64,000 nt of DNA from Marsupella aquatica (lineage: Eukaryota; Plantae; Marchantiophyta). The notes below the pieces were generated by a model. It was not told the origin of the DNA. It searched no databases and saw only the letters and a list, made by a program, of their open reading frames with translations. The stretch lies in the NCBI GenBank assembly GCA_973895155.1, contig OZ316896.1, positions 1,612,001-1,676,000 on the forward strand, read 5' to 3'. A program made the translations under genes and the position numbers. This document shows positions 7,495 to 39,394 of the stretch, in pieces. Numbering within the stretch: position 1 is the stretch's first letter; each line of letters starts with the position of its first letter.

Positions 7495-7527
7495 AACACG
7501 TGGCAGTATATGATTGGTCCACGTGTC
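7495..7527 (+). promoter_or_regulatory. Conserved G-box/ABRE-like plus inverted CCAAT module ~200 bp inside the E1 left end
   Basis: ACACGTGGCA...GATTGGTCCACGTGTC. Equivalent motifs at the same offset in E2 (~21065-21097) and, reversed, in E3 (~34809-34843). Confidence 0.5.
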
Positions 7528-10500: not shown

Positions 10501-11230
10501 CACAGACGCTATCCTTCCCTCTTTGGTGACATGTTTTTGTGTTTCAGGGTTTCCTTTCTGTTTTGACAAGTCTCCCAATGTTTTACCTGCGCAGATACTG
10601 TTACTTTGCTACGAGCAATCTCATAATCAGCGCGGGAATCTACAACAAGGGCGACACTCAAAAGGGCGTTAGGGCGACAACAACTGTTACATATGAAAGT
10701 TTACCTTTCCGGTGAGCACTCCCGTACCCATTTTTTAATTGCTGGAGCGCTGGACATGAAATGCTTTGAGTTCATTGTGATAGGATGTAGCCGTCTTGGT
10801 GCTAGTTTGTTTTTCTTTAATTGAAGGGTTTCTCTTGTTGTTTAATGTCCCATGTTTTTGTTTACGCAGGTAACACTCGATGTTGATTTGAAGAACACTC
10901 GATGTTGATTTGAAGAACACTCGATGGTGAATTGAAGAACGTGGTGACTTCTGAGAAGTTAGACAGGATCAATATCAAAGAAGGTCAAGACTGAAAAGGT
11001 AAAGTAACACAAGAAGCTCACCATATGGATATCACCTAACTTGGAACTTTTACAGTCCCTCACAATGTACGCTAGTTGTGTGCTATTTTGCCTTATTGTT
11101 AGCCGGGTTCTTTACATTGAATTTGACAGATTTCCTTCTGTTTGAAGGTGACGGACTTCAGCTTGAAGGTCACCGCGGGATCAAGCACCTTTTGTTTTGT
11201 GCACAAGGTGAGACTCAGGCTACTGCAGCC

Positions 11231-11638
11231 ATGGTGTCAACCCGCTCTCGGACTTTGGCCGCCCTCCAAGCTAAGGCACTCAGATTGAAAGAGAAATTGG
11301 AATATATGGGCATTCTAAAAGGACCCATTCTATGTTTGTTTGGCTGTGTACCTCCTCGTTTGTTGACTAGGCGCACTCTTTGGAGTAAGAGGGTCAACCC
11401 GACAGCAATTTTGTTCTTCAGATTGGTAGATGGTGTCCAGGGCGAGATGATCACCGGGGGTTGTCTCCATCCCCATTCCCTTAGGTGTTTGGCTTGTGAT
11501 GTGCACCCCGATGCATATATCAAGCATGATTGGGCCTTCAAAGCAAAGCACGCCCAAAAGTTGTGTCGATTGTGGCACACTGACCTGTATGTGAATGGTA
11601 CTGGTATCATTAGTGATACAGCCCCCGCAGAGGCTTAG
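11231..11638 (+). CDS. Possible E1 accessory ORF (135 aa from the ATG), unknown function
   Basis: Open frame MVSTRSR...APAEA with Cys/His residues, downstream of repeated exon-like modules at ~9847, ~10120 and ~10870. No homolog recognised. Confidence 0.3.
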   Translation: MVSTRSRTLAALQAKALRLKEKLEYMGILKGPILCLFGCVPPRLLTRRTLWSKRVNPTAILFFRLVDGVQGEMITGGCLHPHSLRCLACDVHPDAYIKHDWAFKAKHAQKLCRLWHTDLYVNGTGIISDTAPAEA

Positions 11639-12303
11639 GCTCAATTAGTGTACTCCAATCGGATTTTGTATATTTTGGCATGTGATCGACTCAGGATCAA
11701 TTACATTAGTGTCTTGCACAATACTAGACCAGTAGGACTAGGTGGGGTGTAGCGAGCCATCTGGTTTTTATGGAAATGACCCCTAGTAGTCACCTGTCAA
11801 TAGCGTTGTGCTAGTTGGCACCAAACATTTTGTAAACATAATTTATATAACTATACAGTCAGTGAATTTGTATGGAAGTAGCCATCGGTCTCAAGAGTCT
11901 GAGTTTCCGACTCAATGGGAAACGATGATGATGAGAGTGCGGAATTTTGTAAAGCAAAATTTTGACTGTGGCAACATCCGGAAAAGTTCCTATGACCAGT
12001 AGTGCTTGCTCTACTTCAACTTGACAAACTTGGGATGATCTACAGGTGTGGTACGTACTAAGCACCGGAGGTCGGACGGCCAATAGCAAAGACGTGACCA
12101 AAGCTTCACCTACAAAATTCACTGGTACGTTCCGCACCAGTGATTTATTTAGAGTTGAATAGGAAATTATTTAGGGTTGTTTCTTGGTTCTACAGTTATT
12201 TTATCAGGTGGAATGTGCTTTGGCAAACAGGGCTTGTGTTTGTAAAGGTAAAGCATCATTTTGGTTTTGTCATTTCTGCTATAGACATAGGAATTGCTTG
12301 CAG

Positions 12304-12860
12304 GGCCCATCGAATTCAAGGAGACCATTGAGGAAGTGACTGCCTCAATGGAGGCTGCTGGATTTCATCGCTGGCAGTCTAGCGCTCTTTGAAGGAGAAG
12401 CAGGTTGCCTGTGAGGGGGGGGGCTTGGAACTGACACCCAATGGCAATGAGTGCTTAGAGCCATTGAGTCATAGTTGTTGGGTGGTCCTGGTTAGGAGCT
12501 TTGGAATGAATCTGATCCATCCGAGTGTGTCTGTGAGTAAATTGGAGACTGTCCACCATACATGTTGAGGAGATTGATTGGAGTGTAGGGCCTAGCCCCG
12601 ACTGCAGATGGACCAAGCACATAGAGAAGCTACGATCAATGGGACAAGCTTAAACGGGACAAGCTTAAACTGACCATGTGCAGATCCCAATCTCTCTTGT
12701 GCTTACACTGAAACTGGAGTCCATGCATGCAAAGGGTACGACCCTTCCCACCCGAAAGGAGAAAGCTGCAATGGATCTTGAACTTGGCAATGATCACGAG
12801 AAATGGCCGGGATGGGGCAAGGCCCTCGTGGGATTGGTCCAGTGAATGTGGTCTCAACAG
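12304..12860 (+). ncRNA. Conserved structured RNA element (copy 1), probable 5'-UTR exon upstream of the E1 transposase
   Basis: Bounded by ttgcag| and |gtgggc. Shares 10-22-nt invariant blocks and covarying helices with 25315-25823. No conserved ORF. Confidence 0.75.
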
Positions 12861-14858
12861 GTGGGCTGCTTTAGGTTAGTCTTTGTTAGAAACCCCATTT
12901 CTGCCACTCCTAGCTTGCTGGTCTGTCTGAGATGTTTAAATAACTTACTTCGGTGATTTCTAATCGAAATCATCATAGTTTTTGAGTCGACGTTCATGCT
13001 CCTTTTGTCTTCTGAAATGTTTGCAGGCCTGTGGGAGGTGGATGTAGAGTCGTTAGAGTGTTTCACAACATGCCCTCTGCCACTGTATTTCAAGTAGACT
13101 CTGAGTCTGGAGAACGAAAACCGGTGTCCTCATATAGTTATAGGAAAGGGGAAACCTTCGCAGATGCCAGACAGAAGTTGGCGGCTCACTTTGATTTTGA
13201 GTTCCAATTCATAGATGTCAATCTATCTAGTAGGATGCGTGAGTCATGGGAGGTAGTATATTCCTTAGAGGATTGTGGGGGAAAAGTGATCATCATCCCC
13301 AAAAACCCTAGGGATGCTGCAAACTTGCTTGTCCAAAGTAAGGCGGTTATGTCGCAACAAGTCCTTGGAAGCAGCAATGCCTCCAATGGGCCTGATATCA
13401 CAATAAGTGATGATCGTGCTCGGGATCGTGCTGGTTCTCCCATACTGGAAGAACCCCCACTTGAACAGTCAACACCAGACTGTGCTGGCCCATTGGAGGA
13501 AGCCCAAGAGGAAGTTGACCCCCAGGTCACTTTGGGGTCGGAGTTAATGACCAATGAATTAAAGAGGACGTGGTCTTCATGTGTAGAAAAGTTTAAGGAT
13601 CATATGGAGTCAATACAATGCGCTCACCACAAGTGGAGGGTGAAAACCTGGGACAAAGACAATGTGCCATGCAGACACATTGAATGTTGCGAGTGTGACA
13701 CTTGCCATGATGGGTCAGCAAAGGGATTGATGGATAAGACATCCATCAATAATGCCTTCACCAACTTCAAAAAGAAGCATCTGATTTCATCAAAGCATGC
13801 CGCTCGTGTGGCATCTAATAGGGGTGAGAGGCTGCACTCTAAGGAGGTTGCACGGAGGGCTCAAGCAAATACATTGACTGATCGAGCCATACTTCAGTAG
13901 CACCTAAAGATTTTGCAAAAGGTTAATGAGTCTCAGACTGTCGGGAGAGAGACTTTTACAGTTTTAGGTGATGTGGAGAAGGAACCCTTGGAGTTACACA
14001 AATTCAAACTTTTGTGCAATTTATGTTCAGAGCACCTTGTGCTCATTCCAAAACAACGGAATTTGGAGCCCAATCTTGAAAGTCATTGCAATAGCATCAG
14101 TCATCTAAATTATGTTGCAAGGAGTCAAATGCCTGCTAGAGGAGATCCTGTTCTGTCAGGACGGCCTGGAAGACCTCGCCAAGTGGATGCAAGGGATGTC
14201 AAACAAAGGACCATCCAAGGCTTTTTAACTCAAACTGAGGCCGAGTGGAGGGCCGTCTTGCAGTTCCTCTCGAATGTCTGCTGAAGAAGAAAGAGGTGGG
14301 CACTTATCTCTGCTGTGTTGGGGTCTTTGGCGTGATGCGGTCCAATATGGTTCAGAAACCAGGCCTATTAAGGGAATCTTAAACGACCAACTTAAAGTTG
14401 AGGGACTTTGGTTTGCAGAGCCCTTGGTCGTAGAAGATGTGTTCTGTGTAACTGGGCAGGAAACTTATCACATTGAGGGTCTCTTTAGGCACAAGCATTG
14501 CAGTAGATTATCAAAACTTGGGGGTGGCTTTAAAGACTTGACATGTGAACATTGTTTTAGTATAAAAGGGGAACCCGACTTTAGGCTCAGGGTGGCTAGA
14601 GAATTCAAAGCCTCTAAGAAAAGAGGAAGCAGGGGGACTGGGAAGGGTCGTAGGTTAGATTACCTCACGGTTCCCGAGGTCCAGCAACAAGAAAAGTGTT
14701 ATAGGAATCGAGTTCTGAGAGAACGAAAGCTACAGAGAATCCTTAGTCATAGATTACTGATGGCTAAGGCCCGTGTCCCACCCATTGGGGAAGTCTGCCT
14801 TAATTACCAGGAACCAAATAAGGCCACAGTGCTGAAGTTTTGTCAATCCATAGTCTTG

Positions 14859-17800
14859 TGTGACACGGGTAACGTGTCACTTAACCGAACCCAGGTCGTA
14901 GATTAGGTCTTATACGGACGTTAGGACCGTAGCCGTAGCGTAGAATAGCACGTATAGCCGTTTGTTGCCATTATGAATAGATTAGGAGTAGGTTAAGATG
15001 ACCGAATGATTACGAGTTCAGGAAGAGGATTATTACGCGCGACCGAGGTACGGTGGCGGTAGCGGAGTAAAAATCAGTTAGAAGAATCACGCTTGGACCG
15101 AGGCGCCAACTTTAGCTCATTATCAATGACCAAAATGGCCTGGCCTTCTCATGCTCGGGCTCATCCTGGCACCTCCATAAGAGAGGAGCCGATGGCGCTG
15201 CGGGCCATTTGCTCATTTCCACCTTTTTGGAATTCGCGGACATTGCCATCCACTCGCCTTTCCGATCGAATCAAGTTGACCTTTACAAGGAGATTATCGA
15301 GGGATAAGAGCGGAATGTGGCGAGATTTAGTCAGGACGAGCGAGGCCTCCACGAGAAAAAGGACCAATCGAGTGGGAACGTGGACTCAACGAACCGGACT
15401 ACGAGGTTAGTATGACCCTTACAGCCTTGGGATTCTAGACCTTGTTTGGCGAGGTAGGTGCTAAGTTCTCCGAGACTTACTGGTACTCTTGTCCCGAGAA
15501 AGCCGCTTACGAACAAAGATACGCAAAGCTGGTGACCAAGGTAGCACTGGTTAATTGCGAAAGGACAGCCATCACCAGGGATTCCAGCTACAACAAGCTG
15601 TGAGACTACATCATCGAACTATATCTCAGCGAGGAAGGGCTTAGATCAGTAGCAAAGGCGATTCTTGAAGTCCCAACGAAGTTCTTTAAGCTGAAGGGCA
15701 GCCAGCGGCTTACTCAAGCGGAGTTCGACAAGATTCCGGGGTACCTAGACCAGCAGATCGCAGCCGAAAAGCGTCAAGAAGACATCAGCAGACAACGGGA
15801 AGCGGCGCGTAATCTTACGTTCCTCGGGGAAAGCTCCAACGCCTTCAACTGGGATATGGCTACCCCGATACCACCAGTGCCTCAGCCGATGACCACCGGC
15901 ATACCATCGAACCGGTCCCAAGTCCGTCCAATGATCAACACAGTGTTCTTCGGGTTCTGAGCGAGTTAGTCCGCAACTCGAACAGCGTTCTCGTAAGCGG
16001 CCAAGGACAACGACGGCCCCCGAATCAACAACGCGAACCAACGCCGCGCCTACACCTGCCCCGACAAACCCCCCGGCCAACCAGACCCGACGGCCCCCGG
16101 ATAACCCAAAGTCCAACTTATTACAGGTAATCCGCGTCCCCGAAGTAGTCTGGATCGCGATCAAGAAACTCGAACACGCGGACTATCTCAAGGAGCATCA
16201 GTTGGAGCAGTTCGCTCACTTGCTATGGAGGCCGTGCGCCGCCGGGCCGAAGGAGATTTGTGAGTTCATCTCCAATTTCGACACTAACGCATCGACCACC
16301 AAGGTTTTGGGGTAGGCCTTATCACTCACGGAGCATCGGTTAACGCAAATCTTCCGCCTGCCAACCGGGCCGGTGCCGGTTGAACTCCGAATTTGGGATA
16401 AGGAGTATACACCGCGGTACTTCAAACCCGAGGGTAAGACGGACAACGGATACAAGCAGGGGTCATGCACCAACTTAATCTGCATGGAGCGTCTTAACTT
16501 CATACGGACTACCCTACACATGATTGAGCCACGATCCGAGATTTCCCTCTGCATGATCGTGCAGGTGGAACAGTACAAACGGCGGAATTGGGCCCAATTC
16601 TTCTACCAAAGATTCTCGGGGGAGCTGAAGCGGGCTCAGGGTGGTATGGCTATTGGGGGGAAGACTTACTTGGGCAGTCATATTGCCATTATCCTCGCCT
16701 GGTACAAGGCACGGCGGGAGGCCAGAGGAAAGAATTGGCCACCTCAGCCCCAACTAATGTCACCCCCACCCCAGAGGAGGCAACCCCGAGCGCGCGGACT
16801 ACCATCCCTCGGGCAAACCCCGAGCCGGAAGCCCCGACTAATACCCCGCCACCTCCTCCTATGGAAATTCCGCCGCCCCCTTCCGTCGAGCCTCCGCTAC
16901 CCGCAATACAACCACCCCCAATCCCTCCACCACCTGAAGAAACCTTCCCCTCCCTAGCGTAGACTACGGAGGAGCTCGTTGCCCCGCCCGAGGAACCACC
17001 GGTACCCGAGAGGATGGAGGACTACCAGATCCATCGTGACTTCATTAACCAGCTCAACCTGGAGGTAGCGCGACTCCAGACCGAGGCCGATGAAGCTGCA
17101 AACGAGGCGGAGGAGGCGGTGCGGGACAACAAGGCCTTGTAGGACCGCGTTACCTTGCTCGTCCTCCAGCGGGGAAAACCTGGGCCCACCTATGATCAAG
17201 GCGGCTCGAGGTCTCGCCCCGACAAGGGGACCAGCCCTGGTCCAACCACAGCACACACGTAAGGGGTGGTTAGCAAAGGGTGGAAGCAGGCGCCGCGCGA
17301 GGCAGTTAAGTCAGCGGCATCTTTTGGTTAGGTGTAACGACAGAATGGCTGTTATTAGGCACCGATTAGCGGCAGTAGGAAGAATTAGGGCCGGATCAGC
17401 CAACGTAGGATGGAGTCCATCAACGGACTAGATTTTTGTAAGTAGGCTTGGCCGCTGCCATCCCGGTCGGCACCCTTGTCGTCGATGGTCAACCAGTCAG
17501 TGCGGCACGACCAGTAGTCAGAAGGTAGTTAGTCAGTAGGTAGTATCCCGGAAGGTAGTATCCTCCAGTTCTCTTCCGCAAACTGTAGTATTTAGGCTTC
17601 CCCTTCCGCTATGGAAGGGGGACAAGGCTTAGTTATCTCAGCAGAAGAAAGGTGAGGCACGGGGAGTCCCGGCCTGAGCAGGGTCAGAGCGCACCAAGGA
17701 GTGAGAGCCAGAGTCGAGCTTGTTGGGCAAGTGCGAGGCGGGGCCTCATAGAGACTGGGCATCGACTGCCGTTGGGCCTGCTGACCCCCTTTGAAGTCGA

Positions 17801-18234
17801 GTCAACCATGTAAACTGATGCTTCGCTGAGTAAATGTAGTCTTTTCCCTCTAATGTTTCCGCAAGTAACTGGTGTTGTGAGTATGCTTTGTCTGGGCAAA
17901 GGCACCATTTTAAGGGACGTACCGGGTGCGGACTAATGGTAGGGATTGCCACCCATTGTATGTCACAAGGTTCTGTCGCGTCGATGGCTTGAAAAGCCCC
18001 AAGCCGGGAGTTAGTCCGAGTCACTAACTGAGGGAGGATTCCAGCGGTGGAAAATAAAAGATACCTATGACTAGTATGAATTGCTTAAGTTTTATACCAG
18101 TAAGTATATCGGCTTAGCCCGACTTAGGGCTAATCGGGGCCACTACCTCCTTGCCCGAACCCTCACCCCTACTGGTGGTCGAGGTCGCGCCATGGCACTA
18201 AACTGGATTTAAGGCCCAGGTTCGGGACGCGACA
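14859..18234 (+). mobile_element. Solo LTR (family A, 3376 bp) carrying a decayed ORF
   Basis: TGTGAC...GCGACA termini; 5-bp TSD TCTTG at 14854-14858 and 18235-18239. Removal restores IVL-AHKRGAF. No gag/pol and no internal LTR pair seen. Confidence 0.85.
15314..17273 (+). pseudogene. Decayed homolog of the 884-aa LTR-encoded protein; ends approximate
   Basis: ORF 16373-16957 (EGKTDNGY..ERLNF..LHMIEPRSEI..WAQFF..IGGKTYLGSHIAIILAWY) matches the 884-aa ORF (EGSVDNGF..ERLEF..LHMMEPRGEI..WASYF..IGGKAYFASHIEIILEWY). Confidence 0.8.
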
Positions 18235-21200
18235 TCTTGGCACACAAAAGGGGTGCCTTTGGAGGGAGAGGTGCCGTGTGGGATATGTTGTCAGACATAG
18301 CTTCGAACCTAAACAAAGAGAAGCAGGGTTACCGATATAAGGCAGGAACAAAGCTTCTCTGCCAAACACTCTTTTTGCATGGTGGGAGGCGCGTTGTTGA
18401 TTGTCTTTCCAGTAATGGAATAGGTCCTAGTTTGAACACCCTTCAACGAGATAGGAGAGGGATGGCTGTGTTCCGTGCAGGAATTCATGCGTCTCAATTC
18501 AAGTTCATCGCCAAAGTGTACTCACAATTAAAGGATCGACTTGGCATATGTGGACCGATTCCCTGTTTTATGGTAGAGGATGAGACTGTAGTGAAAAAAA
18601 CCGTGAGGTAATTACTATCTCACTTCATAACCTTTGGGTTGATGTACCTACTGTTGTATATTTGAATATGTACACCAAAAAGGCAGCAACCTAAAAAGTC
18701 CTTCACCTTATGTTTGCAGATGGCTGCCAAAACATGATACTCTTATTGGGTTTTGTGGGAAGAGAACTGAAGGCCACCAATGTGTAGCAGGCTTGGAGGT
18801 GAAGGTGGGAAAGGGAGAACCTGGGTTTACTGCCATCGTCGATTCATTTGAGAATTTCCGTGTAGGGAACCTAGCAAGGTGTATCATGGTCAATCCATTA
18901 GTTGTAGGGCTTCCTCACTTGGCTGTAATGGGCGATATAACATGTAATAAGTTTGATGCCCCTTGGGTCAGGCGCCAGTGGGACAAAGTGGAATCTCTCT
19001 GGACAACTCATTGCTTGGAATCGGTGGGCCCTCTATTGGGACATGCCAGTGATGGGGATTCACGAAGGAGAAAGCTTATGTTGGAGGATTATAGTGGGAG
19101 AGGGATTGAGGGGCCAAGGCAAAACCTGGGTTGGGAAGGTTGGCAGCTGACTCACTCGATTACGACTACTGCCCAGGCCTCTGGAGGCTATGCTGTAGGA
19201 CTCCATGATTAGGATTATATCCATAATGGGAAGAAGCTAGTCAACCCACTTGATTCAAGTGCCAGGATTTTGAAACTAGGAGCAGGTGTTGCAACCATAA
19301 GTCACTTGATACACTTAGAGGAGTTATATGAGGTGGCTCAGCATGGCTTGAACAAAGAGGACAAACGTCGCAGAGATCGGCAGAATTGGGCAAGTGCACA
19401 ATGACTTTGTAGTCGTAAAGTCAGTAATTCTTTGCGGCTGCTACGAGACAGAGCAGATGCTAGGGTTGAGCTTACTCTTGGGATAGAGGTGTACATTAGG
19501 ATATGTGCAGATTATTTGGACATTTTTCTTAACACTCGGCTCAGTTTGCGCGAGAGGATTGTTCTCTGTGGGAAGGTGGGATTCTTTTTCAGGCTTTGGC
19601 GTCTGTGGTGTTTTCATGGGAACCGCTCAGTTGGGGGTAACACACACCCTATCACCTTCACCCATAGTTGTATTCCCATGCAGACATTCCTTGACATTCA
19701 AATGTCAGCGCATTTTGTTGTTCTTTTGATAATCCAATTCAGGGACAAATTCCAAGATCTACCTGTACCCTTGCATTTGACTGGGTCAGATTCTTGTGAG
19801 CAGTTTTTTTCCAAAGTTGGGGGCATGAGGGGCAATGAGCGAAGCTATGACATATCAGAATTGGTGGAATGTGCTACTAATCTGAACCGGTTGGCTGCAA
19901 TGGATTTGACCAAAGGAATTATGGGTGTGGGGAAGAGTCATAAAAAACACTCAACCATTTGGATGGGACTGCACCCAATAGAAGCTGGGGTTGATGCAAT
20001 AGCAGATCAAGAAAATTATACAGGAATCGAAACAAATGCAGAGGTTATCATTGCTTTGCAGGATGGGTTGGTATTGGCCCAGAGTATTGCAACTGAGTGT
20101 CAAATGAACCCTTCCACATCGGCCAGGGACAAGGTGTGGTGGACTTCACCTTGGACGACTGAGGCAAAAGGGGCTAAGTATGATGGATGGTGTGATGTGA
20201 ATGTTGAGTCATTAGTTAATGTGGATGAAGGTTTGGATGATGAACCACCACCATTAGTACAGCCTGTTGTCCCAGTGGAACAGACTCTTGAGGAGATTGC
20301 CATGTTTTTAGATCCAGAGGTAGTGGATGTTGGCGCTGCAATTGACGTTACCATGGATGCAATGCATCCTGACTTGGTGTATGGTGCCCCTAGACAGGAG
20401 TTTAAACCAACAGTATCTTACAAAGACAGGAGTATCTACAAAAGTACCCTGGTGAGCCAATTAGTGGGCAACCCACACCTTAGTAAGGACCGTCTCACTC
20501 GAGTGAAGCAGAGTATCTATTTCAACAATTTAGTGGATAAACCAAATGTGCGTGAAGGATCTCCATCCATGTTTATGACAGTTGGAAGTGACTGTGGAGT
20601 ATTTTTTGTTGATGACACTCCTCAGGGTAGAACCACTCAAAATACAGAGGCCATAGCTCGAGCAATGAAAGGGAAGGGGCATGCCAAGAAGTCAACCGAT
20701 TCTAAAAGGCCTAGAGGTGAAGCTATCACAGTGACTTCAGTTACAGGAGTGAAATATAAGTGGTGGATTGGACGAGTCCAAAGCATCCACAGGAAAGATG
20801 GGAACAAGATAGGAAGATCAAGGGAAGCATTGGATTTGCTTGATAGGCCTGGTACTGAATCCCCTGGGCCCCCAACGTTATTAATAATGGACCGGACGTG
20901 CGAACGGCCGAAGGGTACATTTAAATCAATTCCAGATTAATTTTTATAATCGACTTATAACCAACAAGACCATATTTTATATGACAATCTCTTTATAACT
21001 ATTCCAAGGCATCCAAAATGCCGGCCAAAATAATTTGCTTGAAGGGGGCCAGTAATATGGCATACACACGTCATGATGAGATTGGTCCATGTGGCACGCC
21101 CTGAGTGGAGTTTAGTGTAACAAATACTTGTGGTGAATAGGATGAGTTATGAAAGTATTTGGAGTTTTGAGGGTTTAGGGTGAAAGGTTTTTGGGGGTAC

Positions 21201-21239
21201 ATTTCTAGGGGGTTTTGGGTGTTTGCAGGGCAAAAGTTC

Positions 21240-21430
21240 AGGGGGAGTACTCAATCCCAAGGGAATGAGCCCTGGAATGAGTCAAAGGTCCGGGGCAGGG
21301 GGAGTAAACAATCCCCAAGGGAATGAGTCGAAGGCCCGGGGCAGGGGCCGGGAATACTCAATCCCCAAGGGAACGAGTCGAAGGCCCGGGGTCAAAGTGA
21401 GTCCAAGGGAGTGTCAAAGTCGGGGTCGAA
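21240..21430 (+). repeat. Degenerate ~55-bp tandem repeats in the E2 5' region
   Basis: Repeated GGGAGTACTCAATCCC(C)AAGGGAATGAGTCGAAGGCCCGGGG-like units. Confidence 0.7.
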
Positions 21431-24400
21431 GGGAATTAGGGCTCAGCTTCAAGCCGCCGGATTTCACATAGTGCTACCAAGTCGAGAGGTTCGGTTTAGG
21501 CTGAGGGAAGTGGAGCTTGCAGGTTGGCTACGGACCTTGGATGAAGGAAGCTATGGGGCCTAAATGAAATGTTGCGGGTGGAGGCCGACACTTGATGCTT
21601 GCGAAAGTGGCGTTTGACGCAAAGCGGGACGTTGCAAGGCTGGGAGGCGTGCACTGGCGGGACCGACTGTGGGAGGCACACCTTTTTTGGAGTTTTGTTT
21701 AGGGGTAACTTTCCTTACACTGCCCACTGTTTACGTAGAATGATCATACTTTCCATTGTTTATGCATGCATACACTTTACTAACTATGAAAGCTCGTAAC
21801 CTACTACCAGCTATTGCCCGAGCTACCGTCGATCTGTAAGAAGGGTGAGGCGCGGGTTGAGGTGTTGTTGTGGCTATTGTTGATCTGCGCTTAGTGCCGT
21901 TTGTCTGCTGGAAGCCCGGCCAGCGGGAAGCCCAGGCATCTGAAAGAGGTCCGACTCCCTCTGCTCACTATCTTACTCGGCTCACTACCTTACTCCGCAT
22001 AGTACGTGATTTCAAATATTTTGGTATGCACTGCACTTCCCGCTCCACTTTCGACTATGGTCAACTCCTCTTTGTTTTGAAATTGCGGCTCACAGCAGGG
22101 CTGAAATGTTGCAGAAAATGAAAGGTGGTATGCCTTGGGTGTTGTGGGAAGCGACATTGTCTATGTAAGGTTTGCTACTGTTGCTATTGGAGCGCAGCCC
22201 CGAGTATGCGTGCAACTGCAGACGGTGTCTCAAGTTGTCTGTAGGAGGCCCACAAATCCTAGCATGCTGTAATGCAAAAAGGTCCAAATCAGTGTCTTGC
22301 CTTTTCACCACCCTGCACACCCTCTGCTCATTGTCGTTGTCTATGCAATTTAGTTTTTCATTGTATCCTGAAGCTTTACAAGCTTTCATGTTGAGTCTGG
22401 TCGTGGCGTTTTCCCGGGCGTTTTGGCAATCCCATGTTAATTGAATGTTGGGCCCGACTGTATCTGTTGCCGCTGCCGTTTGGAATTTGTTGGATATGGT
22501 GCTCTCTGCTGATTCCCACATTGTCGTGCTCAGTGCTGTCATCTTGTTAATGTGGGCTATGGCTTACTGATCCGTAAGTCTACTCGCAAGCAATCCAGAT
22601 AATTTTATGTTCTAATGTGTGATAGGAAATGTGCTGTCTCCTCTTTCCTCTTTGCTTGACTTATTCCTTCGCTTTTGATCTTGTCCGTGTATCTCAATCT
22701 TGGGCAGCTATTTTCATTTACATAGTGACTGTAAAGCTTTGCTAGTTGCTTACATTGTAATGGTATTTTGCTCTCCATTACAGTTGTTCTTCTGACTTGT
22801 TTGATGGCATTTGACTGTCCAATACAGCGATGAGCCAGCTGCGTTGAGTTCTTTCAATTTGATCAGCTGTTGGGAGAGCGTTCGGGACGTTGAATTTGAG
22901 CTGGTGGCCTCCGAATTGTTGAGATCAGTCAGTCTTGGGTGAAATCCAGTGTTTGCGTGAAAAGGTCCGTGCTCTTTGCTCTTGACGTCTCTGTTTGACT
23001 TGGACCCTCAATTTGTTTCACGGGGATTGCAGCTTTCGTCTTTCATAGAGTCCAAGTCTTTCTCGATTACATTACTGTGTACTTGTAGATGTCTTCCAAT
23101 CGGAGGTACGCTCTGTGTTTCACAGGGATTACAACTTTCGTCTTTCACAGAATCCAAGTCTTTCTCGATTACAAGGCTTCTTGTTTAATGTGGGTGCCAA
23201 TGCCTGTGCAGTTGTAGATGTGTTTGGTTTTCTAAATGCTAATATTTTTTGTGATTGCAGAGTTTTTTGTTTGGGTGAGCGCTGTCCACCTCAAAAGACT
23301 ACAAGCGATTGCAACAATCAGGTCATTTTCAAACTAATCATTTCTTTTGCACAATGTCATAGTGATTTTCAAATCTATTGGTATATCATTTGCTCTTGTT
23401 CAATCAGAGTAGCAAAGCATGGTGAACTCCTATTTGTTGCTCCATCGTGGCCTGCATCGTGGTTAAATTTGTGCTTCAAATGTGTGCAGAAGTTGTCGCT
23501 CTTGCTGTCCGGGCATTTTACTTGTCAAATGTGCGGCTACTGCTGCGGAAGTCCCTGTGGAAGGTGTCTGCCATAGGCCAGTGGAAGGTGTCTGCTTTTG
23601 GGTAGTTTGCCTCTCAGTTCTCCTTTGTGTCCATTGTACTAGTCCAGGAATAATTGTGGGGTAGAAATGTCGTTGTTTGATCGAGAACCACAATTAAGAA
23701 CTTTGGTATATGAGATGGGAAGCGATGGACGTAGCAAAGCTGAGCTGAGCTGAGAGTAGATAGAACAATTTTGCATCACGGCAAAGCGATGAAGAAGATT
23801 GATCATGGCCAATTTTTCCGATCATGGCTCTAGACAACTGACATGATTTTGTCCAATTCTCACATCCGATGACACAAGCAAACCAGTATTACAGAGTAGT
23901 AAGTGGCTTTGCACTGCACAGTGAGTTGTAAAAAGGGAAGTATCGACCAAAACCCCACTCAAAGATTTAGATGAGGTCATGAATGAGGAGTCGAATACAA
24001 AGCTGAGCTGCTGTGCGCGGCTACCCCGGCGCGTTGAGGAGCTGAGGGATTTCTTGTGTTTTGGGGTTTCGTGTTTTGGTTTTTCTTTGTTGAACGAGAT
24101 TCGGCTTGCAGTCTATGCAATCATATGAGGATTTTGGTGGTCCGGTTTGAAGGTGTAACAATTCTGCCATCTCGTTCTCCTTTTTGGCATTGACTTCAAA
24201 CACAGCTTCTGCTGCTTTGCCTACATTCCCCTTCTCCCTTCCCTTGTTTCCCAAGCCAAGATAGTAATTCACGATTGATCGCAGCTCTAATCCTCATTTC
24301 GGTGTCATATTTTGTGTTGCTGGTTTGTTTACTTTATCTTGTTTGTCCGATACCAAGTTGCAGTACACTTGTGAGATTTTCTGTGTGTCCAATAAGACCT

Positions 24401-25314
24401 TTCTCTTAACCCCTCAATCTCAGCCATTCCATCACTCAACTCCTTTAATCTCATCTGGATCGATCCAAGCGAGAGGCATCAATTTCATGCTCCTCTGCTA
24501 CTTCTGCGCCTTGTTCCTGCTCCTTTCACAGCATTTGTAGGGGCAGGGACTAGATGGATTTTGAGCAATTCGAACAAGCAGCGGATTGCATTATTCAAAT
24601 AACCCATTGAAATATCCTATACAGATTGCAATATTAAAAAACCCACTTCATTTGCTCATTGCAATAGTATTGCGTAACTTTATTTTATCACCGAATGTAG
24701 CAATTCTCTTAGTAGGTCATTACTGAAATGCGGGCTGAAATGGTAACAATTTCAATTGCCCATGATAATTGTGTTGCATTACTATAATGAGACGAAATTG
24801 AATTGCTATTTACTTAATGCCTTTTCTCTTTGCTTCTCACTCTTTGTAGGAGGGAGTGATCATTGAGACTGTATTACTTATGCCCCTATGCCCCACCTCC
24901 AAAAGGAAACATGTCCCACACACTGAGTACGTTGTAAGGTAAGATTTGGGGGATCATTGATGTTCCTGTATATGGCAATGCCTTCCTTTTCCTGGCATTA
25001 CCCTTCTAAATAGTCCCACTGCAAACTATTTTTAAAGATATTCCTTAAACTCATTTTTTGTTGTCATTTACACAGATACTCATACACCTCTGAAGTCAGG
25101 AAGGACAGACGCCCCCAAGTGTTGGGTTCCACCATCACAAGGTATCCAATCAATTTTGCATTTTGTACTATTTCCTTCTGGATTACCGTATCTGTAATGT
25201 CTCCACAGACGCTAATTGACAGGCATTGTGTGTTGCTGAGGTAAGTTTTCAGCTTTTCATTTCCAGGTCCTGTTTGCAATTTCCTTCCCTGCTATTGCAA
25301 GTGTTGGTTTGCAG

Positions 25315-25823
25315 GTTCCTCAAGTTCATTGGGACCCTGGGGAACTAATGCCCCCAGAGGAGACTTGCTGGAAGTGATGACCCAGCAGTCTAGCGCCCCT
25401 TGAATGAGAGAACAGGTTGCCTGGGAGGGGGGGGGGGCCTTGGAGTTGATTGCCAATGGCATTCCTGATTAGAGCCCAAAGTGTTAGGATTTGGTTGGTC
25501 CGGGATTGGCAAAGAATCCAAATTCTTGGGGCATTTAGGGTCGATAGGGACTAAGTCCAAGTACACCGTGTTCGAGTGGAGGGAATTGGAGTGTGGGCAA
25601 CCCGACTGTACATGCTAAGCACACATGAGCATGTTACAGATCCCAATCCCTCTAGTGCTTACATTGACATTGGAATCCTTGTCAGCAAAGGGGCCACCCT
25701 TCCCACCCGAGATTTCTCGGAGAAAACTGACTTGGATCTGTAGAAGCCAATCACCAAGAGCAATGGCCGGGATGGGGCAAGGCTCTCTTGGGGGTTGGTC
25801 CAATGGATGTGGTCTCCCAAGCA
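25315..25823 (+). ncRNA. Conserved structured RNA element (copy 2), probable 5'-UTR exon upstream of the E2 transposase
   Basis: Bounded by ttgcag| and |gtgggc. Perfect stems ACATGCT/AGCATGT, TACAGATCC/GGATCTGTA, CATTGGA/TCCAATG and CCAAGAG/CTCTTGG; covaries with copy 1. Confidence 0.78.
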
Positions 25824-25925
25824 GTGGGCTGCTGTAGATGTTCTGTACTAGGGTATTTGATTGGGAAATGCTTGAATGTGACATGTCCATTGTATTTCTT
25901 GCAGGTCTGAATCTGTGATTTTTTC

Positions 25926-28900
25926 ATGCCGCCTGTGCCTGTATTTCTCGTTGACCATGAGTCAGGGACCAGAAAACACTCTGGGACCATTAGTTGTCTC
26001 CCTGGATGGACCTTGGCGGATGCTAGGCAGAAAATGGTGGATTTGGAACTTTGGGACTTTGATTTTGATTTTATTGATAGCGTGGGAGGTTGTAGATTGC
26101 GTGCTGCTTGGGAAAAAGGCAACCTCATTGATGATTGTGATGGAAAGATTGTCATCATCCCAAAAATACAGTCTCTGCCCATCCAGAAAGTGGGGGTAGA
26201 TGTTGGAAGCAGCAATGCCTCCAATGCTGAGGCTCTGAGTAAGAGCGTTAGTGACGGAGAGTGGCACACTGAAGTTAGGGTAGAACCTGAGATACAGTGG
26301 GGACAACAGGACTTGCCTCTACCTGTTTCACCCCCAACTTCACCTCTCCCTAATGTACCTGTGGATGATGATCCACATGTGAGTTTCCAGTCAACAACTA
26401 TGTCAAATGATCTGGCCAAGCTCTGGGTGTCCAGTGTTGACAAGTTGAAGGAGCATATGGTCTTCATAAAGTGTGAGGACCACAAGTGGAGCGTCAAAAC
26501 TTGGGACAATGGTGGTGTTCCATGTGGTAAGATAGAGTGTTGCGAGTGCAACACTAATATATCTGGATCATCTAAGTATGTTATGGATAGGGTGTCTGTC
26601 ACTAATTGTTTCACAAATTTCAAACAGAAGCATTTGATCACCCCAAAGCATGCCAAAAATGTGGCACATAATAGGGGGCAGAGAGTAGACTCTGTTGAGA
26701 TCAGTCGAAGGGCTGCAGCTTCCTCCTTGAACGATCGTGCAACTCTTGACATGCATGTTCAGATAGTTGAAAGGCTCAATGAATCTGAGCCTGTGTCCAA
26801 ACCTACCTTCTACATTGTAGGTGATGTTCAGAAGGAGCCTGTGGAGAAGTTAGAGCGGTTCAGAGTGGGGTGCCATTTTTGCTCTGACGTGTTCACTTTG
26901 GTACCCAAGCAACGTAATCTGGAGGTTAATCTGAAATCCCATTGCATCTCTGCAAATCATCTATCAGCAGTGGCTAGGAGTTTGAAGCCACCACCTGGTG
27001 CACCAATACTGTCAGGAAGGTCAGGCAGACCTCCCAAGGATGATAAGAGGGATGTTCGCCAAAGAACCATTAATGGGTTCTTAACCCGGCAGGCCAGAGA
27101 TATTGCTTCCAGCAGCCGGTCAGGAGGGACAGCTGGAGGGAGTGGTTCAGGAGGGAGTGGTTACAGTGGAGGTTCAGGCCATTCAGGGGATGTGACAGGA
27201 GATCCAGGTAAACCCCACCCTTGGTCATTGTTGTGTTGGGGATTGTGGCGGAACTCAGTTCAATATGGTGCAGTAATCAGGCCTATCAAGGATATCCTAT
27301 TAGATCAGCCAAAGGTTGATGGAGCATGGTACGCAGAGTCAGGGGTAAAGGCAGAGGTGTGGTGTCTTTTAGGCCAAGAATCTTGTTTGATAGAAGGACT
27401 GTTCAGGCACGTGAACTGTAGTAGAGCATCACGGCTTCTTGGTGGTTTTCAAGATCTGACTTGTGAAGAATGTTACAGTATTGCAAGGATGGGTGACTTC
27501 CGATTAAGAGCCTTTAGAGAGGACATTGCAGTAGAGAAAAGAGGTACTCGAGGAACCGGTAAGGGTAGACGGTTGGCATATCTCACAATTCCTGAGATTC
27601 AAGAACAAGCCAAAACTTACAAGAGAAACATTTCGTCTCTCAGAAAATGTCTCAGAGCTCAGCAACACCGCCTGTGCATGCTGGGGGCCCGAGTCCCCAC
27701 TTTGAGAGATCTTTGCAAAGAGTCTGGAAGTAGGAAAGACATGTACAAGTTTTGCAATGACATAGTCTTGGCTCACCAGCGTGGTGCATTTGGTGGGAGA
27801 GAGGCCCTATGGGACTTGTTGCGAGATGTAGCTGCAAATCTTAATAGGAAGAAAGAAGGAAACACCTTTCGGCCTGGCACTAAACTTCTTTCCCAGATAT
27901 TGTTCCAACAAGGTGGCAGGCGTGTGGTGGACTGCTTGCAAAGTAATGCATTAGGCCCTAGTCTGAACACCCTTCAACGGGACAGGAGAGCCATGGCTGT
28001 ATTTAGGCCTGGTTTGCATGCTGACCAGTTCAAGTTTGTTGCTGCTGTATACTCTCAACTAAAGCAGAGGATGGGGATCACAGGTCCCGTGCCATGCTAT
28101 TTGGCAGAAGATGAGACCTGTCTTAAGCGGACAGTCAGGTGATTTCATTCCCCTGGACAACATCCTACAGTCTGTAGTAAATTTTTGGCTGTTATCCCTC
28201 TCCTCAATAGGTCTGTGGTTGACCACTATTGTGGATGGCTGTGTTGCAGATGGCAACCAAAACATGACACCTTATTGGGGTTTTGTGGGTTGAAAGAGGA
28301 TCACCAGTGTGTGGTTGGCTTGACAATAAAGGTTGGAGCAAGAGAGGAGGGTTTCAGCAAAATCACTGATACCTTTGAGAATTACAAAATTGGAAACCAG
28401 GCCAGATGTATAGTAGTAAATCCTCTTGCAGAAAGATTTCCTAAATTTTGCATGGTAGCCATGAGTACATGCGGTAAGTTTACTGCAGATTTTGTCAATC
28501 AACAATGGAAGTCCACAGACACTTTGTGGGCTAAATATTGTCTAGACTCAGTTGGTCCTCTCTTGGGTCATGCTAGTGATGGAGATGCACAAAGGAGAAA
28601 GCTGATGCTAGAAGACTACACTGGTCAAAGCTCATATCAAGGGCAAAGACAGAATTTGAGATGGGAAGGTTGGCTATTGAGCCACTCATTCACTACCAAT
28701 GGACGTCATACACATGCTGTTGGTTTACATGATCAGGATTACATTCATAATGGAAAGAAGTTAATAAACCCACTTGATTCTGCTGCCAGAACTTTGAAGC
28801 TGGGAACAGAGGTGGCTGGAATCAGTAACTTGGACACTCTCCAACGTTTATATAGCAACTTGGATCATGGGTTGAACAAAGGTGATGTTACACGGAATGA

Positions 28901-30659
28901 TAGACAGAATTGGGCCAGTGCACAACGATTATGTAGTAGAAAAGTTGTGAAGGCACTAAGAATGCTTCGTGAAAGGAAAGATGCAAGAGTTGAGCGAACT
29001 CTGGGGACTGAGATGTATCTCACAATATGTGGTGATTACTTGGATATCTTTATGAATCCTTGTCTCACCTTGAGAGAGCGGGTTGTTCTCTGTGCCAAAG
29101 TTAGTTTCTTTTTTCGCCTTTGGCGATTATGGTGTTTTCATGGAAATCATAGTGTTGGAGGTAACACGACAGCAATCAATTTTACTGTGAGTTGTGTCCC
29201 TATGCAGACATTTCTTGATATTCAGATGTCTGTGCACTTTGTGGTACTTCTAATTATCCAATTCAGGGATAATTTCAGACATTTGCCAAATGTGCCATTG
29301 CATTTGACAGGATCTGATGCATGTGAACAGTTTTTCTCCAAAGTAGGAGGAATGAAAGGGAATGAGCGTAGTTATGATTTCTCTGAGTTGATTGACTGTG
29401 CAACATCGTTGAATAGGTTGGCTGCAATGGATCTCAGCAAAGGGATCAGAGGGGCTGGAAAAAGTCACAAGAAGCATTGCAATATTTGGATAAAATTGCA
29501 TCCAATACCGGTACAAGTTGGTACTTCTGTTAATCCTGTAGACTACACAGGTATTGAAACCAATGAGGAAGTTGTGGTAGCTCTGAAAGAAGGGTTACTT
29601 TTAGCCCAGACTGTAGGAATCGAGTTGCAGATGAATCCATCTACATCTTGTAGGGATAAAGTATGGTGGGAATCACCTTGGATTACTGAAAAAAAAGGGT
29701 CCAAGTTTGGAGGATGGTGTGATGTTAAGGTGGAGGATCTTGCACCTGTTGATAGTGATGATGAAGAATCAGGCGGGGAGATCAGGCAAATTGCAGCTAA
29801 TGTAACTATCCCAACACTTCCAACTGATATGGCAATGGCAGAAAGTAGTGAGATCATTGAAGATAGTGAAAGGCCAAGCATTGCAATAGTAGGGGATCAT
29901 TGTTCAGCTGTTATGTCTGAAATGCATTCAGACTTGGTGTATGGACAACCTGTTCTTGACATCAGACCAACTGTGAGTTTTGATGGTCGGACTATATACA
30001 AGAGCACATTGGTAAGCCAACTAGTTGGTAACCCCAATGTAAGTAAAGATCGTTTGACTAGAGTGAAACAGAGCTTGTACTTCAACAATTTAGTTGATGC
30101 ACCCAAAGATCGAGCAGGAGCAGTCACCATGTTCATGACTGTGGGTAGTGATTGTGGAGTTCTCTTTGCTGATACAACAGTACAGACTCGGGCCACAAGA
30201 GCCACTGAGGCTATACAAAAAGCCATGAAAGGGAAAAGAGCAAGGAAAGAATGTGGGACAACAAATGGATCTTCTGCTCCCAATCCAAAAAAGCCAAGGG
30301 GAGAACCTGTGAACGTTACCACAGTACCTGATACCCTTAAGTACACTTGGTGGATAGGGAGGGTACAATGCATCCAACGAAAATATCAGGGTCGGGTGAT
30401 GGGTAGAACAAGACAATCAGTGGATTTACTTGATAGGCCTGGCGGTGAAGAAGCTGTAAGAGTTCGTTTTGAATGGTTTTCAAGGATTGGAAATAGTAAG
30501 CACAGATTTGCTTACAATGTTTGTGATCCTCAGTGGATCGATTTGGATTGTGTGATATCAAACGTGACACTATCAGTGAATCCCACAACTCCAAATGTTT
30601 TTCATTTGCATCCCGCTGATGCAAATTTGCTGGATGATTTTGCTAAAGCCCATAAGTGA
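25926..30659 (+). CDS. ~1540-aa P-element-superfamily-like DDE transposase, join(25926..28138,28250..30659)
   Basis: GT-AG intron 28139-28249 joins the 738-aa and 824-aa ORFs in frame. Motifs LAEDET (D1), ASDGD (D2), QDYIHNGKKLIN, DRQNWASAQRLCS and GSDACEQFFS (E) parallel the P-transposase motifs FDEM, CDQG, DxxHLxKxxRN, KMxVxxAxQ and QDxLENFF. Confidence 0.85.
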
Positions 30660-33136
30660 TTGATACCACAGAAGGGTAAATGGTTATATTCTGAGACTTC
30701 AGCCATGCAAGGAGACAAGATTTTTTCTAAGGCAAGTTCTTAAGATCCTGTTTGCTTTTGTGAACAATTTGATATCCCATTTGATATGACATAGTAAAAC
30801 ATATGCTCATTAGGCTCACATATTACTCCACATAATAGTTTAATTTGGACAAATCATTAATGTTTTTGATGTAATTTTTTTTATTGTGTTCACTCAGGAT
30901 CTTTTGAAGATGGAAGACAAGAGGAGGACATATAAGTTGAGAATTTTGCAAGAGTGTTCTCTTAGTTCAGATAGAAGTTCTGTATGCACTAAACCCTAAA
31001 TGTGTGCCCGGCCTCTTAGTTCAGAACTTTTGCAAACACTCTTACATGTTTATAGCAAAATGTTTTCTAGAAATAGTGCTTTTATAAGATTATTAGAAAA
31101 TAGTTGTATAAGTACTTTTACATATATGCCCTTTATAGACAATAGGTAGATTTGTAAGCACTGCTTCATGTGCTAAATCATAATGAAGCACTCTTATATG
31201 TGCTAGAAACACTGTCAAAGTTAAAGCACTATTACATGTGCTAGAACAGAGTGATTCATTGTTATATGTGCTAAAGTTGAGTCTTCTTCTCCATTCCAAC
31301 ACAATTTTTTTTATATAGATACCTATTTTTCTATGGTATACCTTTAATGAGTTTTGTATATTTTTTAATATTTTTCAAAAATTTATAATATTTTAAGACC
31401 TTTTTAAATTTGATTAATGGTAGATTTATAATTTTTGCAAGGGGTAAATAAATTCTCTAAAATTAAGTTTTTAAGAATAACAAGAGATAAATCTATCGGT
31501 GACCAAAAATAATAAGGGGTATGTGATAAGGGGCTGTACGCACGTATACCCCTTACCAATACAAAGGCTGGGGGCCCAGGGACTGAATCATGTTGGGAAG
31601 TGAGGTTCAATTGGTTTACTCCAATCGGGGCAACTAGGTGTAAGTTTAAGTATGATATGTGCGATCCTAGCAGCATTCCGTTGGAGGCTATCATTCAACA
31701 GTGAGCTTTACTGTAGATCCATTGTACCCAAAAATCTTCATATTACATCCTGATGATGTAATAGCTCTTGACGATTTTGTAAAGAATAGAATAGTTTAAT
31801 TCATTTTCGGTAAGCACTTACCTTTCATACTTCTATCCGTTTGTATTATTATAGTTAGTCTGTTCTGTACATTTGAATGACATGTAGCTAGTGATATTTA
31901 TGAGCCTCTTACTCAAGTACATATTATCCATATGAGTGCTATTGCTATTGATATGTGTTATGGTGATCTATTGTTGGGTCAGGTAAATCCAAATCATAGC
32001 GTGCAACATTGTACCAGCAGAGTTGGTGCAGGGGTCTTAGGTTGTTGTGAAATCATGGGATCATCACGATTTGTCATGAGAAAGGTCCACATTAGGAGAG
32101 CTTACCCTCCTGTGCGGCCTTCAGTACATAGCAGAAGGCAGCCTATGATACTCCGAGACCTTAATGCAAGAATGAAGAGGACATCCGCCTCTGATCCTGG
32201 GATGAACTCAGTCAAGGAGGAAGTAGAAGTGCAGCTTGGTGATAATTCAGTGAAGAGCTCGACGAAGGGGAGCCGAATGCAGGGCCTCAATGGCAGTCTG
32301 GGCATGAGTTGCTGTGGTGATGATGTTTGTTTCTCAAGTGATCCTGTGAAGCCTGAGCAGGCGGCGGGGCAGGCGGCTGAATCCTGTCCAAAAATGAGTG
32401 CTGATGAAGTTGAGGAGTCCAATATTATGGCAGCAGGCGTGCCTGCTGCTTTTCTTGATTACATATTTTGGCCTGTATTGGGGCCTGTACATTATTATTC
32501 TATTCATGAAGCTGATGATTAGTGTTTTGATTATTGTTCTGTGCCTATCAATGTGCATAGGTTCCATGCCTCTTGGTGTAGCACCTGCCTAGCTCCAGTG
32601 TTCCTGAGGGGATTGCAATGGAGCTCTTAGCTATCCAACCAGTATTATAGGTAGTAGTATAGGTAATAACAAAAGTCCTCCATATATGAGGAAGTCATCA
32701 ATAACACTTTTGTTATTGCCACAAGGTTGTATCCTAGTGGCAAAAAGTATGCTACAGTTAATAAAAACCCTACTCCGGGCCCTACTCTCAATACTTCAAT
32801 CATGCGTTTGATGTACGGTGGCAATTTTTTTTACTAATGAATGAAGGGTGTTTTAAATTCATTTTTTCACTAAATTATAAGAATCCAAAGGGCTCAAATT
32901 ATTCAGTGAAAACATAAATTTATAACTAACAAGGGAAATATGAAAAGTCCAAAAAATTATAACAAGGGGTACTAGGGGGAGGCTTGATCTCAGGGGGGTT
33001 CACTTAATTTACTAGGAGTGAGGGCCCAGGGGATCGAGAAAAAGACAAGATTCTAGGAGAGGGTGAGGTAGAGGATTAGGCGGCTATGGAAGAGGTTCAA
33101 GAGGTTCTAGAGGTCCTTGTGGTCCTGGTGTGGATG

Positions 33137-33419
33137 CTCGGGGGTTAACTTAGTGTATATTTTGGGGTACCACATGCGATCCTAGCCTAATACAATCACA
33201 CCTATTTCATAATGGGAATATTCCAAAAATATTCTCTATTTTCAATATTAATGACCTATTTTACTTTATAAAAGGTATATATAAGAGAATATTCTACAAA
33301 TATGAGTTTATAAGACCTTTTGCTTCCTGTGCTTTTTAAAAATTTAGCTAATTTCTACAAAAAATACCTATTTTGGATCGCACTTGGTTCCTAAGATTTT
33401 TAATAGTCAACCCCCCAAG
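33137..33419 (+). mobile_element. ~283-bp MITE (copy 1)
   Basis: Termini CTCGGGGGTTAAC...GTCAACCCCCCAAG; 8-bp TSD TGTGGATG at 33129-33136 and 33420-33427. Confidence 0.8.
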
Positions 33420-33968: not shown

Positions 33969-35043
33969 CCCTGGGCCCTTACTCCGTGTATATTAATGGA
34001 ACCGGCCTGTGAACGCCCCTCCCTTCCAAACCCCTTCAGTACTATTTTTTGCCCTTTTAAAAAGCTCTTATTAGTATTAATACATTACTTTTGGGTCATT
34101 AAGAAAGCCCTTTAGGCTATTATAATCTTCATCAAAATGACATTAAATATGCTCTTCAGGTGTTATAAAAATTCTATCAAAGAGATTCTAAGTCAAACAG
34201 ATTGGAATAAACATTTCACATTATCAAAAGCAAAAATAGGAACAACATATTCTTTATGTACACACTTCCTCGCAAGAAGGTAGGAGTCAAGGCATTTAAG
34301 AGTCAAACAAACTCATACAAGTATCCAAATTAAGTTGTAAACATCCTACGCTGTCATCTATGAAAACCGTAAGTCCACATTGCACTTAAGTTTGTCCCAT
34401 AGTTTGTTGAGCATATTCATCATCGTTTACAGGAAAGTTATCCTTTGAGTCTAAAGCATTGGAAAACTTATTACATTTAAACCAATTCTTTGATCACTAG
34501 AAGTGATAAATATACATCGAGGTACATAAGTGACTCTGGATTGAGACTCTCTCTCTATCACTTGTGGCATCATAGAATCCCCATCTGACGCAACACGCAT
34601 TGAACAACGGTGTCTACTTGACCTCCTCCTTCTTTGGGGGCCCTACAAGGCCATATATACCCCTACACCGTTTGATATAGAGCATCAAAGAGATCGACGG
34701 CAGACCATTTTGGTCATCCATAAATGGTACACGAGACCCCCTAAAGGCAAAATTTCCCCTATCCCCCAAAAATTCAAATGTGTTTGCACACCCCAAACCA
34801 AGGATGTAATGACATGTGGATGAATGAGTATTGACGTGTGGCGGCCCTATATGCTTTACCCTTACATACAACTACTCGAACCCTATTTTTTAGATCACCT
34901 TGGTTCATTATAACATGGAACCAAATAAAACAAAGGGTTGTTACATTATAAGCGATTATAACTATTATTCAAAAAAAGGATTTAAAAACCCCTTGAGTTG
35001 TTCGCACGGGGGGTCCCATATTAGTTAAGCTAAGGGCCCAGGG
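33969..35043 (-). mobile_element. E3: non-autonomous 1075-bp member of the CCCTGGGCCC family, inverted relative to E1/E2
   Basis: 13-bp TIR CCCTGGGCCCTTA; 8-bp TSD GTGGTGAT at 33961-33968 and 35044-35051. The left-end motif CGTGCGAAC is found reversed at its right end. Confidence 0.92.
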
Positions 35044-39389: not shown

Positions 39390-39394
39390 GTGCC

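Follow-up and report, generated by a model that had tools for sequence, protein, structure and literature searches.

A base-paired and apparently undescribed RNA element in a P-like transposon family of Marsupella aquatica

Here we find that a base-paired RNA element of ~520 nt, apparently undescribed, is a real component of a P-like plant transposon family in Marsupella aquatica. Two copies, E1 and E2, lie in nested transposons of the window (the whole 64,000-nt stretch of contig OZ316896.1 analysed here), and a third full copy, L027, comes from a metagenome; only these three full copies underlie our comparisons. In 3/3 copies the structure appears to coincide with one predicted exon, opening at a strong predicted acceptor and closing at TAG. 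The first-pass annotation had treated the sequence as a free RNA; instead, we place it inside a transposon, where it forms a predicted leader exon of a P-element-like transposase gene. The function of this exon is most likely translational, and our tentative choice of mechanism, held at somewhat less than even confidence, is a putative IRES-like element serving the downstream start codon of a long, probably polycistronic transposon transcript. The literature within reach, outside of which lay most subscription journals, Repbase and bioRxiv supplements, holds no description of the RNA or of the element.

Structure and covariation of the element

The two copies in the window and the parts of E2 are as follows:

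12304..12874, + strand: E1, copy 1 of the structured exon; the next acceptor ends at 13026 and the AUG lies at 13070
25315..25837, + strand: E2, structured RNA in one predicted exon; the acceptor TTTGCAG ends at 25314 and the 3' edge, TAG, is at 25837
25326..25403, + strand: E2 5' domain with two-sided changes, where hairpins A (25337-25357) and B (25366-25387) meet in a three-way junction
25413..25422, + strand: invariant CAGGTTGCC of E2
25439..25573, + strand: E2 central variable domain, 59-66% identical among copies, with contig joints across the domain
25578..25660, + strand: E2 helix 25578/25653 around a GG-GCAA-CC hairpin, helix 25606/25639 and the AAGCAC-loop hairpin
25662..25816, + strand: E2 3' domain, helix ATTGGA/TCCAAT around a junction and a long stem whose loop contains the invariant segment TGGCCGGGATGGGGCAAGG

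The junction of the 3' domain consists of an AAGGG/CCCTT hairpin, a CCCAC linker, a variable hairpin and AGAAAA, and the domain terminates in invariant TGTGGTCTC; G-U pairs and GNRA loops point to the + strand. Beyond the 3' edge, TAG is followed by GT in E1 and L027 and by AT in E2, where the window copy has an alternative donor at 25853 that gives a 52-nt intron; contigs with G at 25838 occur in all four public runs. In E1, a 15-nt tandem duplication (12645-12675) enlarges the AAGCAC loop and leaves its stem intact.

Covariance models R1 and R2 match E1 and E2 alone in the window. A predicted leader exon of the outer transposon (9340-9410) reads CTTCCCCACCC...GAGAAAGCTG and resembles the C-rich junction of the RNA; this look-alike (9360-9410) receives no score from either model. 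L027 was the one copy among 32 metagenome loci with the invariant 18-mer, the other 31 being chance, as were all motif-scan loci in viral contigs (7, 0, 2, 0) and prokaryotic genomes (14) by blastn, nhmmer or cmsearch. The four public runs contain 104, 230, 39 and 31 contigs matching the region, many with other letters. Their summed depth is maximal at 25739-25800 in 4/4 runs, with a second high near 25398-25459, which is the pattern expected from diverged copies sharing words and should not be taken as copy number. Comparison of E1 with E2 shows identity at 158 of 195 aligned columns in the 3' region (25634-25837), at 725/1,012 positions in the transposase core DNA and at 427/643 in the N-terminal part of the transposase.

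All motifs described in the first-pass annotation are found at their places in E2, with matching places in E1 (12304-12874), and the compensatory nested helices that it proposed hold up in L027, a copy absent from its data and so usable as a blind test. Specifically, five of the six helices can be read in L027, where 23/23 pairs are kept across 11 changed bases that include 5 double changes; 11 changes placed at random keep a mean of 16.4 pairs (P about 4e-5). For example, ATTGGA/TCCAAT in E2 becomes GCCCGA/TCGGGT in L027, CAAGAG/CTCTTG becomes GAAGAG/CTCTTC, and CTGGGG/CCCCAG becomes CTAGGG/CCCTAG. The L027 strands were located by hand, and automatic alignments recover the same helices. The sixth helix, GTCAG/CTGAC, was excluded from the blind test because its register differs among the copies; its stem is present in the alignment in imperfect form (72.7% paired).

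Across 13 nested helices, eight of which were picked with L027 already in view, 58/58 pairs are kept through 28 changes, with 11 double changes against 1.5 expected. Pair counts on the three sequences gave 10 and 8 pairs with two-sided change, values as high as which were reached in 0/500 shuffles and which fell to at most one (0-1) after sliding; since the structures derive from the same three sequences, these controls are not a phylogenetic test. The folding energy of E2 (z = -2.35) is weak on its own, and with 25 shuffles each the z-scores are modest (E2 -2.0, E1 -0.3, L027 -1.2).

The proposal of 'multiple pseudoknots' in the same annotation was overstated: of its four pairings, the copies contradict one, covarying nested helices take up the strands of another, and the remaining two do not vary. 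The contradicted pairing, TACAGATCC with GGATCTGTA, is perfect in E2 only; 2/9 pairs are lost in E1 and 3/9 in L027, where a fourth is merely G-U, and contig ends of other copies read GATCTT. CAGTC/GACTG can pair in all three copies, yet both strands lie within covarying nested helices (hairpin B and CTGYA/TRCAG), and where TRCAG differs (T-A versus C-G), the compensating change lies in CTGYA, which also occupies the GACTG strand. AGCAC/GTGCT (5 pairs) and TGGG/CCCA (4 pairs) never vary, so covariation neither supports nor refutes either. The AAGCAC loop of E2, which can pair with GTGCTT at 25655-25660, is the best candidate because it is kept within four different stems (those of E1, E2, L027 and one run X5 contig end); one contig reads GTGTTT, which would retain a G-U pair with the loop. 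A new candidate joins TTGCCY (in 25413..25422) to GGGCAA at 25775-25780, with one one-sided change. For the G-rich loop, CCCAC, ATCCC and TTGCCY are all possible partners, each invariant or nearly so, and three sequences cannot decide among them. As judged from these sequences, the pseudoknot claim shrinks to two or three candidates.

The transposons and their encoded proteins

Three elements in the window share CCCTGGGCCC inverted-repeat ends and exact 8-bp target duplications (3/3). They and their coding parts are:

7295..33031, + strand: TE1, outer transposon, with ends CCCTGGGCCCTCA and target duplication GATCGAGA
11231..11638, + strand: 135-aa Cys/His-rich ORF 5' of E1, homologous to a 126-aa ORF 5' of the RNA in L027
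20862..31581, + strand: TE2, 10.7-kb transposon, with ends CCCTGGGCCCCCA and target duplication ACTGAATC (20854-20861 and 31582-31589)
25926..28138, + strand: transposase coding exon A, 738 codons, with a ubiquitin-like domain (aa 1-84), two C-x2-C...H-x5-H fingers and the first acidic motif, EDET
28139..28249, + strand: predicted transposase intron; full-length relatives continue across the junction
28250..30659, + strand: transposase coding exon B, 803 codons, with motifs SDGD, QDYIHNGKK and DACEQFF
33969..35043, no strand assigned: TE3, 1,075-bp non-autonomous element sharing these ends, flanked by target duplication GTGGTGAT

This P-like family, which is without a Pfam model, is represented at 7295-35043 by two nested copies of autonomous type and one non-autonomous copy. 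TE2 sits in the transposase gene of TE1, which is also broken by stops and by an insertion of ~3.3 kb of GC-richer sequence (14860-18230). The RNA element is absent from TE3 according to covariance models R1 and R2, an absence that fits a trans-acting or a translational role equally.

Several other features were observed in the window. The TE1 leader holds three or four repeated exon-sized units at 9829-10990, each with a GGTAAC donor-like motif, and 280-bp inverted repeats (87%) surround TE3 at 33140-33416 and 35334-35613. Long inverted repeats with GGTACC-rich tandem units (37286-38068 and 45603-46408) lie around a 12-nt-period repeat (39380-39960) and are possibly a DNA element. Direct repeats of ~1.2 kb (89%; 47083-48800 and 58589-59753) flank RT/RNase H/integrase ORFs and an SNF2-like fragment in an LTR retrotransposon-like arrangement, and the window also contains a retrotransposon pol region. 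A host PPR gene (46-1509) and a legume-lectin-domain ORF (4537-5520) are present as well.

TE2 encodes a protein of ~1,540 aa. Relatives of 1,492-1,523 aa align to both exons unbroken from residue 4-8, so that the AUG downstream of E2 is likely the true start. The transposase family has 1,395 representatives at E 0.001, with conserved acidic catalytic motifs and a D-x-x-H motif; named protein relatives come from Riccia, Adiantum and Ceratodon, and viral contigs contain none. One relative, P0005, is 44% identical to exon B, and its model (pLDDT 83.8, built on 68 sequences) best matches 6P5A (E 1.8e-10) and 6PE2 (3.1e-10), with RAG1 next at 2e-4. H451 and E643 are invariant and D401, D403 and D448 occur in at least 90% of the 68 sequences, with the motifs present in TE2. 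From the modelled fold of this relative, the plant transposase is predicted to be P-element-like.

For the transposase, sequence searches of the PDB and Pfam gave no match, P-element and THAP models included; in the N-terminal model, a domain resembling ubiquitin (Z 8.3, rmsd 2.8, 70 aligned) accompanies other zinc fingers. Foldseek with the N-terminus returned nothing significant, a search with residues 1-400 returned no relative, and leads for the finger region in the Atlas were unnamed clusters only. The two C-x2-C...H-x5-H fingers recur in the long relatives, and their H-x5-H spacing is known from RNA-binding U1/matrin fingers. Residues 149-265 give a weak HPF/RaiA-like match (Z 7.2, rmsd 3.1, 92 aligned) that lies below the trust level of the tool.

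Members of the P-element superfamily have an N-terminal THAP domain, terminal inverted repeats and a 7-8-bp target duplication. The present family resembles the Drosophila P element in the predicted fold of P0005, the inverted ends, the 8-bp duplication and the spliced gene. Unlike it, the protein here reaches ~1,540 aa with a ubiquitin-like N-terminal domain and H-x5-H fingers, the ends begin CCCTGGG, and the 10.7-kb element carries extra ORFs and this RNA.

Upstream of the RNA, TE1 and L027 have in common a ~130-aa ORF located 570-670 nt away in the same direction, in which GGCLHP, C-x2-C and LCR-W motifs can be seen (L027:653-1036). This small ORF has no Pfam match, a search with the L027 version found its own record alone, and TE2 contains no homolog by tblastx or local alignment. 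After the ORF stop comes a conserved non-coding block (11814-11949, L027:1141-1261 and 23596-23857), possibly a 3'-end or promoter signal, which is only faint in TE2; a CT-rich stretch of TE2 near 24,050-24,500, seen by eye, could be its own promoter. Downstream of the RNA in L027 lies a 241-aa ORF (L027:2217-2942) unrelated to the transposase. An AEP-like lead for this ORF in the Atlas (0.96) came with recognition below threshold, and splicing would bring the ORF into frame with the first AUG in the invariant segment of the RNA.

The leader is rich in AUGs. The exon itself has 11, 15 and 12 in the three copies, a further 21 lie from the start of the upstream ORF to E1, and the 815 nt before E2 contain 14 (introns included). 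After the next predicted acceptor, the AUG follows at 21, 43 and 5 nt in the three copies, so the distance is not fixed.

Comparison with known RNA families

The first-pass annotation did not recognise the RNA as RNase P/MRP, SRP, telomerase RNA or a group I or II intron, and our search of Rfam 15 likewise found no known family. Indeed, no covariance model reached its gathering score in the window, and the best E values (1.1 around E2, 4.6 in L027, 1.7 in E1) belong to different unrelated families; this search covers RNase P/MRP, SRP, telomerase, group I/II introns, ribozymes and IRESs insofar as they are catalogued. Familiar family core motifs and a telomere template are absent from the RNA copies. 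Together with the covariation, these observations support a conserved structured element outside the catalogued families.

Parts of the element call to mind viral translation elements. As in type IV (HCV-like) IRESs, a helix surrounds a multi-hairpin junction, an invariant GGG loop is exposed on the long stem that comes next, and the whole lies just 5' of an AUG and before unrelated ORFs. For these IRESs, an apical GGG loop in subdomain IIId is described, together with such placement and portability (PMC7354566). Here, an invariant GGGATG loop caps a covarying stem in 3/3 copies, a resemblance only. Of the subdomain IIIe GA[U/C]A tetraloop there is no counterpart, GAYA words being unconserved among the copies and absent 3' of the helix; for a basal pseudoknot by the start codon, enumeration over the three copies gave no covarying helix and several invariant options. 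The element further differs from type IV IRESs in its ~520-nt length, its location in a nuclear transposon exon and its lack of an Rfam match. The pyrimidine tract that type I/II/V IRESs have 18-20 nt before an AUG at their 3' border is not shared among the predicted spliced leaders, where the AUG lies at +5, +21 and +43.

The PTE, a plant virus 3' cap-independent translation enhancer, offers a second likeness: a three-way junction in which a C-rich linker separates two stem-loops and a G-rich segment is complementary to it. In the PTE, the linker joins two stem-loops of the junction and the G-rich bulge lies on the basal stem (PMC10484670). A linker of this type, CCCAC between the AAGGG/CCCTT and CCG/CGG hairpins, is found in 3/3 copies, whereas a G-rich asymmetric bulge is absent from the 5' strand of the basal stem, the G-rich part here being a hairpin loop 3' of the junction. 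Furthermore, our element lies 5' of an ORF, and its PTE-like part is a small portion of a larger fold. The G/C contact in the PTE crystal structure is not a plain pseudoknot (PMC10484670), which calls for caution with GGGATGGG/CCCACCC. The element is neither a type IV IRES nor a PTE, though it echoes both and may work like them.

P5SM, 45ABC, DEAD and other plant structured splicing elements also present conserved structure tied to pre-mRNA splice sites (PMC12218528); our element differs from P5SM-type elements in its larger size and in belonging to a transposon leader rather than a host gene. The motifs searched were not found in that paper's supplement, and the text consulted does not mention transposons (PMC12218528).

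Bridge RNA and omega RNA (IS110, IS200/605) are structured non-coding RNAs encoded beside a mobility protein, as here. Unlike in those systems, no segment matches the element ends or target beyond chance, and the protein is a P-like DDE transposase. Against its own element ends, the RNA gives best matches of 7-8 nt, at the shuffled level in four comparisons with a null, and its matches to target flanks (7-9 nt) do not favour the target of its own element. Two further ideas were rejected: that hairpin A mimics the element ends, and that a conserved peptide starts from the AUG in the invariant loop, since lengths and frames differ among the copies.

Possible roles and significance

In the IRES-like reading, one long spliced transcript would carry the upstream ORF, the structured exon and the transposase. 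An AUG-laden leader behind another ORF would block scanning from the cap, splicing would place the 3' domain 5-43 nt from the AUG, and the invariant GGG loop, C-rich linker and A-rich junction would bind the 40S subunit or eIF4F. We favour internal entry because the AUG-full leader is hard to scan and because the fold ends just 5' of the start codon and is reused before another gene; with L027 carrying it before an unrelated gene, the structured exon would be portable. In support of this reading, conservation is highest in the 3' region, which lies closest to the AUG, and the element's size and parts echo viral elements. Counting against it, the element lacks hallmarks of type IV, type I/II/V and PTE elements, the distance to the AUG varies, the donor GT of E2 is missing, and TE2 has no homolog of the upstream ORF and possibly its own promoter. 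A cassette exon or a circular RNA would account no less well for the exact coincidence of structure and exon.

An unlikely alternative is that the exon acts as a structured cassette in a splicing switch, in which inclusion would block translation via its AUGs, skipping would free it, and a protein ligand, possibly the transposase, would set the switch. There are precedents in plants (PMC12218528). The structure fills the predicted exon in 3/3 copies, its borders being better explained this way than by an IRES. Furthermore, invariant segments have competing partners that exclude one another (CYC nearby or GGTCTC farther off for GRGACC; CCCAC, ATCCC or TTGCC for the G-rich loop), and the transposase N-terminus offers two H-x5-H fingers and the weak HPF/RaiA resemblance. 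However, the leader 5' of the exon already contains AUGs, plus a whole ORF in TE1 and L027, so skipping the exon would not free the start; in TE2, one predicted upstream exon has 3 AUGs, so that skipping would not clear the leader either. Autoregulation is also weakened because the gene 3' of the RNA in L027 is not a transposase, and known plant structured splicing elements are much shorter.

We regard it as improbable that the exon yields a trans-acting RNA, linear or made circular by back-splicing, that binds the transposase as a transpososome scaffold or regulator. Such a product would be consistent with a fold flanked by an acceptor and a donor, with ends that can pair (GRGACC/GGTCTC in 3/3 copies), with the candidate RNA-binding fingers of the transposase and with retention of the RNA in the related element L027 beside a different downstream gene. 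Against this stand the lack of any guide-like match to ends or targets and the fact that DDE transposases are not known to require an RNA. Less probable again is a self-cleaving or lariat-capping ribozyme that would cut the long transcript to give the downstream ORF a new 5' end. The many invariant unpaired purine-rich linkers and candidate pseudoknots, and a position between two ORFs reminiscent of the GIR1 lariat-capping ribozyme, speak for it; the three copies have no Rfam match even at E 10, the hammerhead core motif is absent, and a cut at the 5' side would leave 11-15 AUGs ahead of the ORF. Inherited similarity among transposon copies with chance helices and no selected structure is highly improbable, for although there are three related sequences only and folding z-scores are modest, the blind test (P about 4e-5), the drop to 0-1 double changes in slid controls and conservation exceeding that of the coding core all argue against it. 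The remaining probability belongs to roles beyond these readings.

Returning to the broader picture, the chances seem to us evenly balanced that this transposon family carries, in the form of a portable exon, a large RNA machine: a new cellular IRES class that makes transcripts polycistronic or, more boldly, an RNA that the P-like DDE transposase binds through its zinc fingers in a working complex. A ~520-nt fold more conserved than the adjacent transposase core is unusual. In the nuclear genomes of plants, RNA structures that are conserved and covary are rare: 16 candidates with modest covariation were reported from a survey covering 130 genomes (PMC12218528). The many diverged copies in seed-free plant genomes make this structure directly solvable by covariation. 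Should the element be an IRES, it would stand as a well-folded example of cellular origin, offer land plants a way to polycistronic expression and perhaps serve as a tool; should the transposase bind it, it would be an RNA partner for a DDE transposase.
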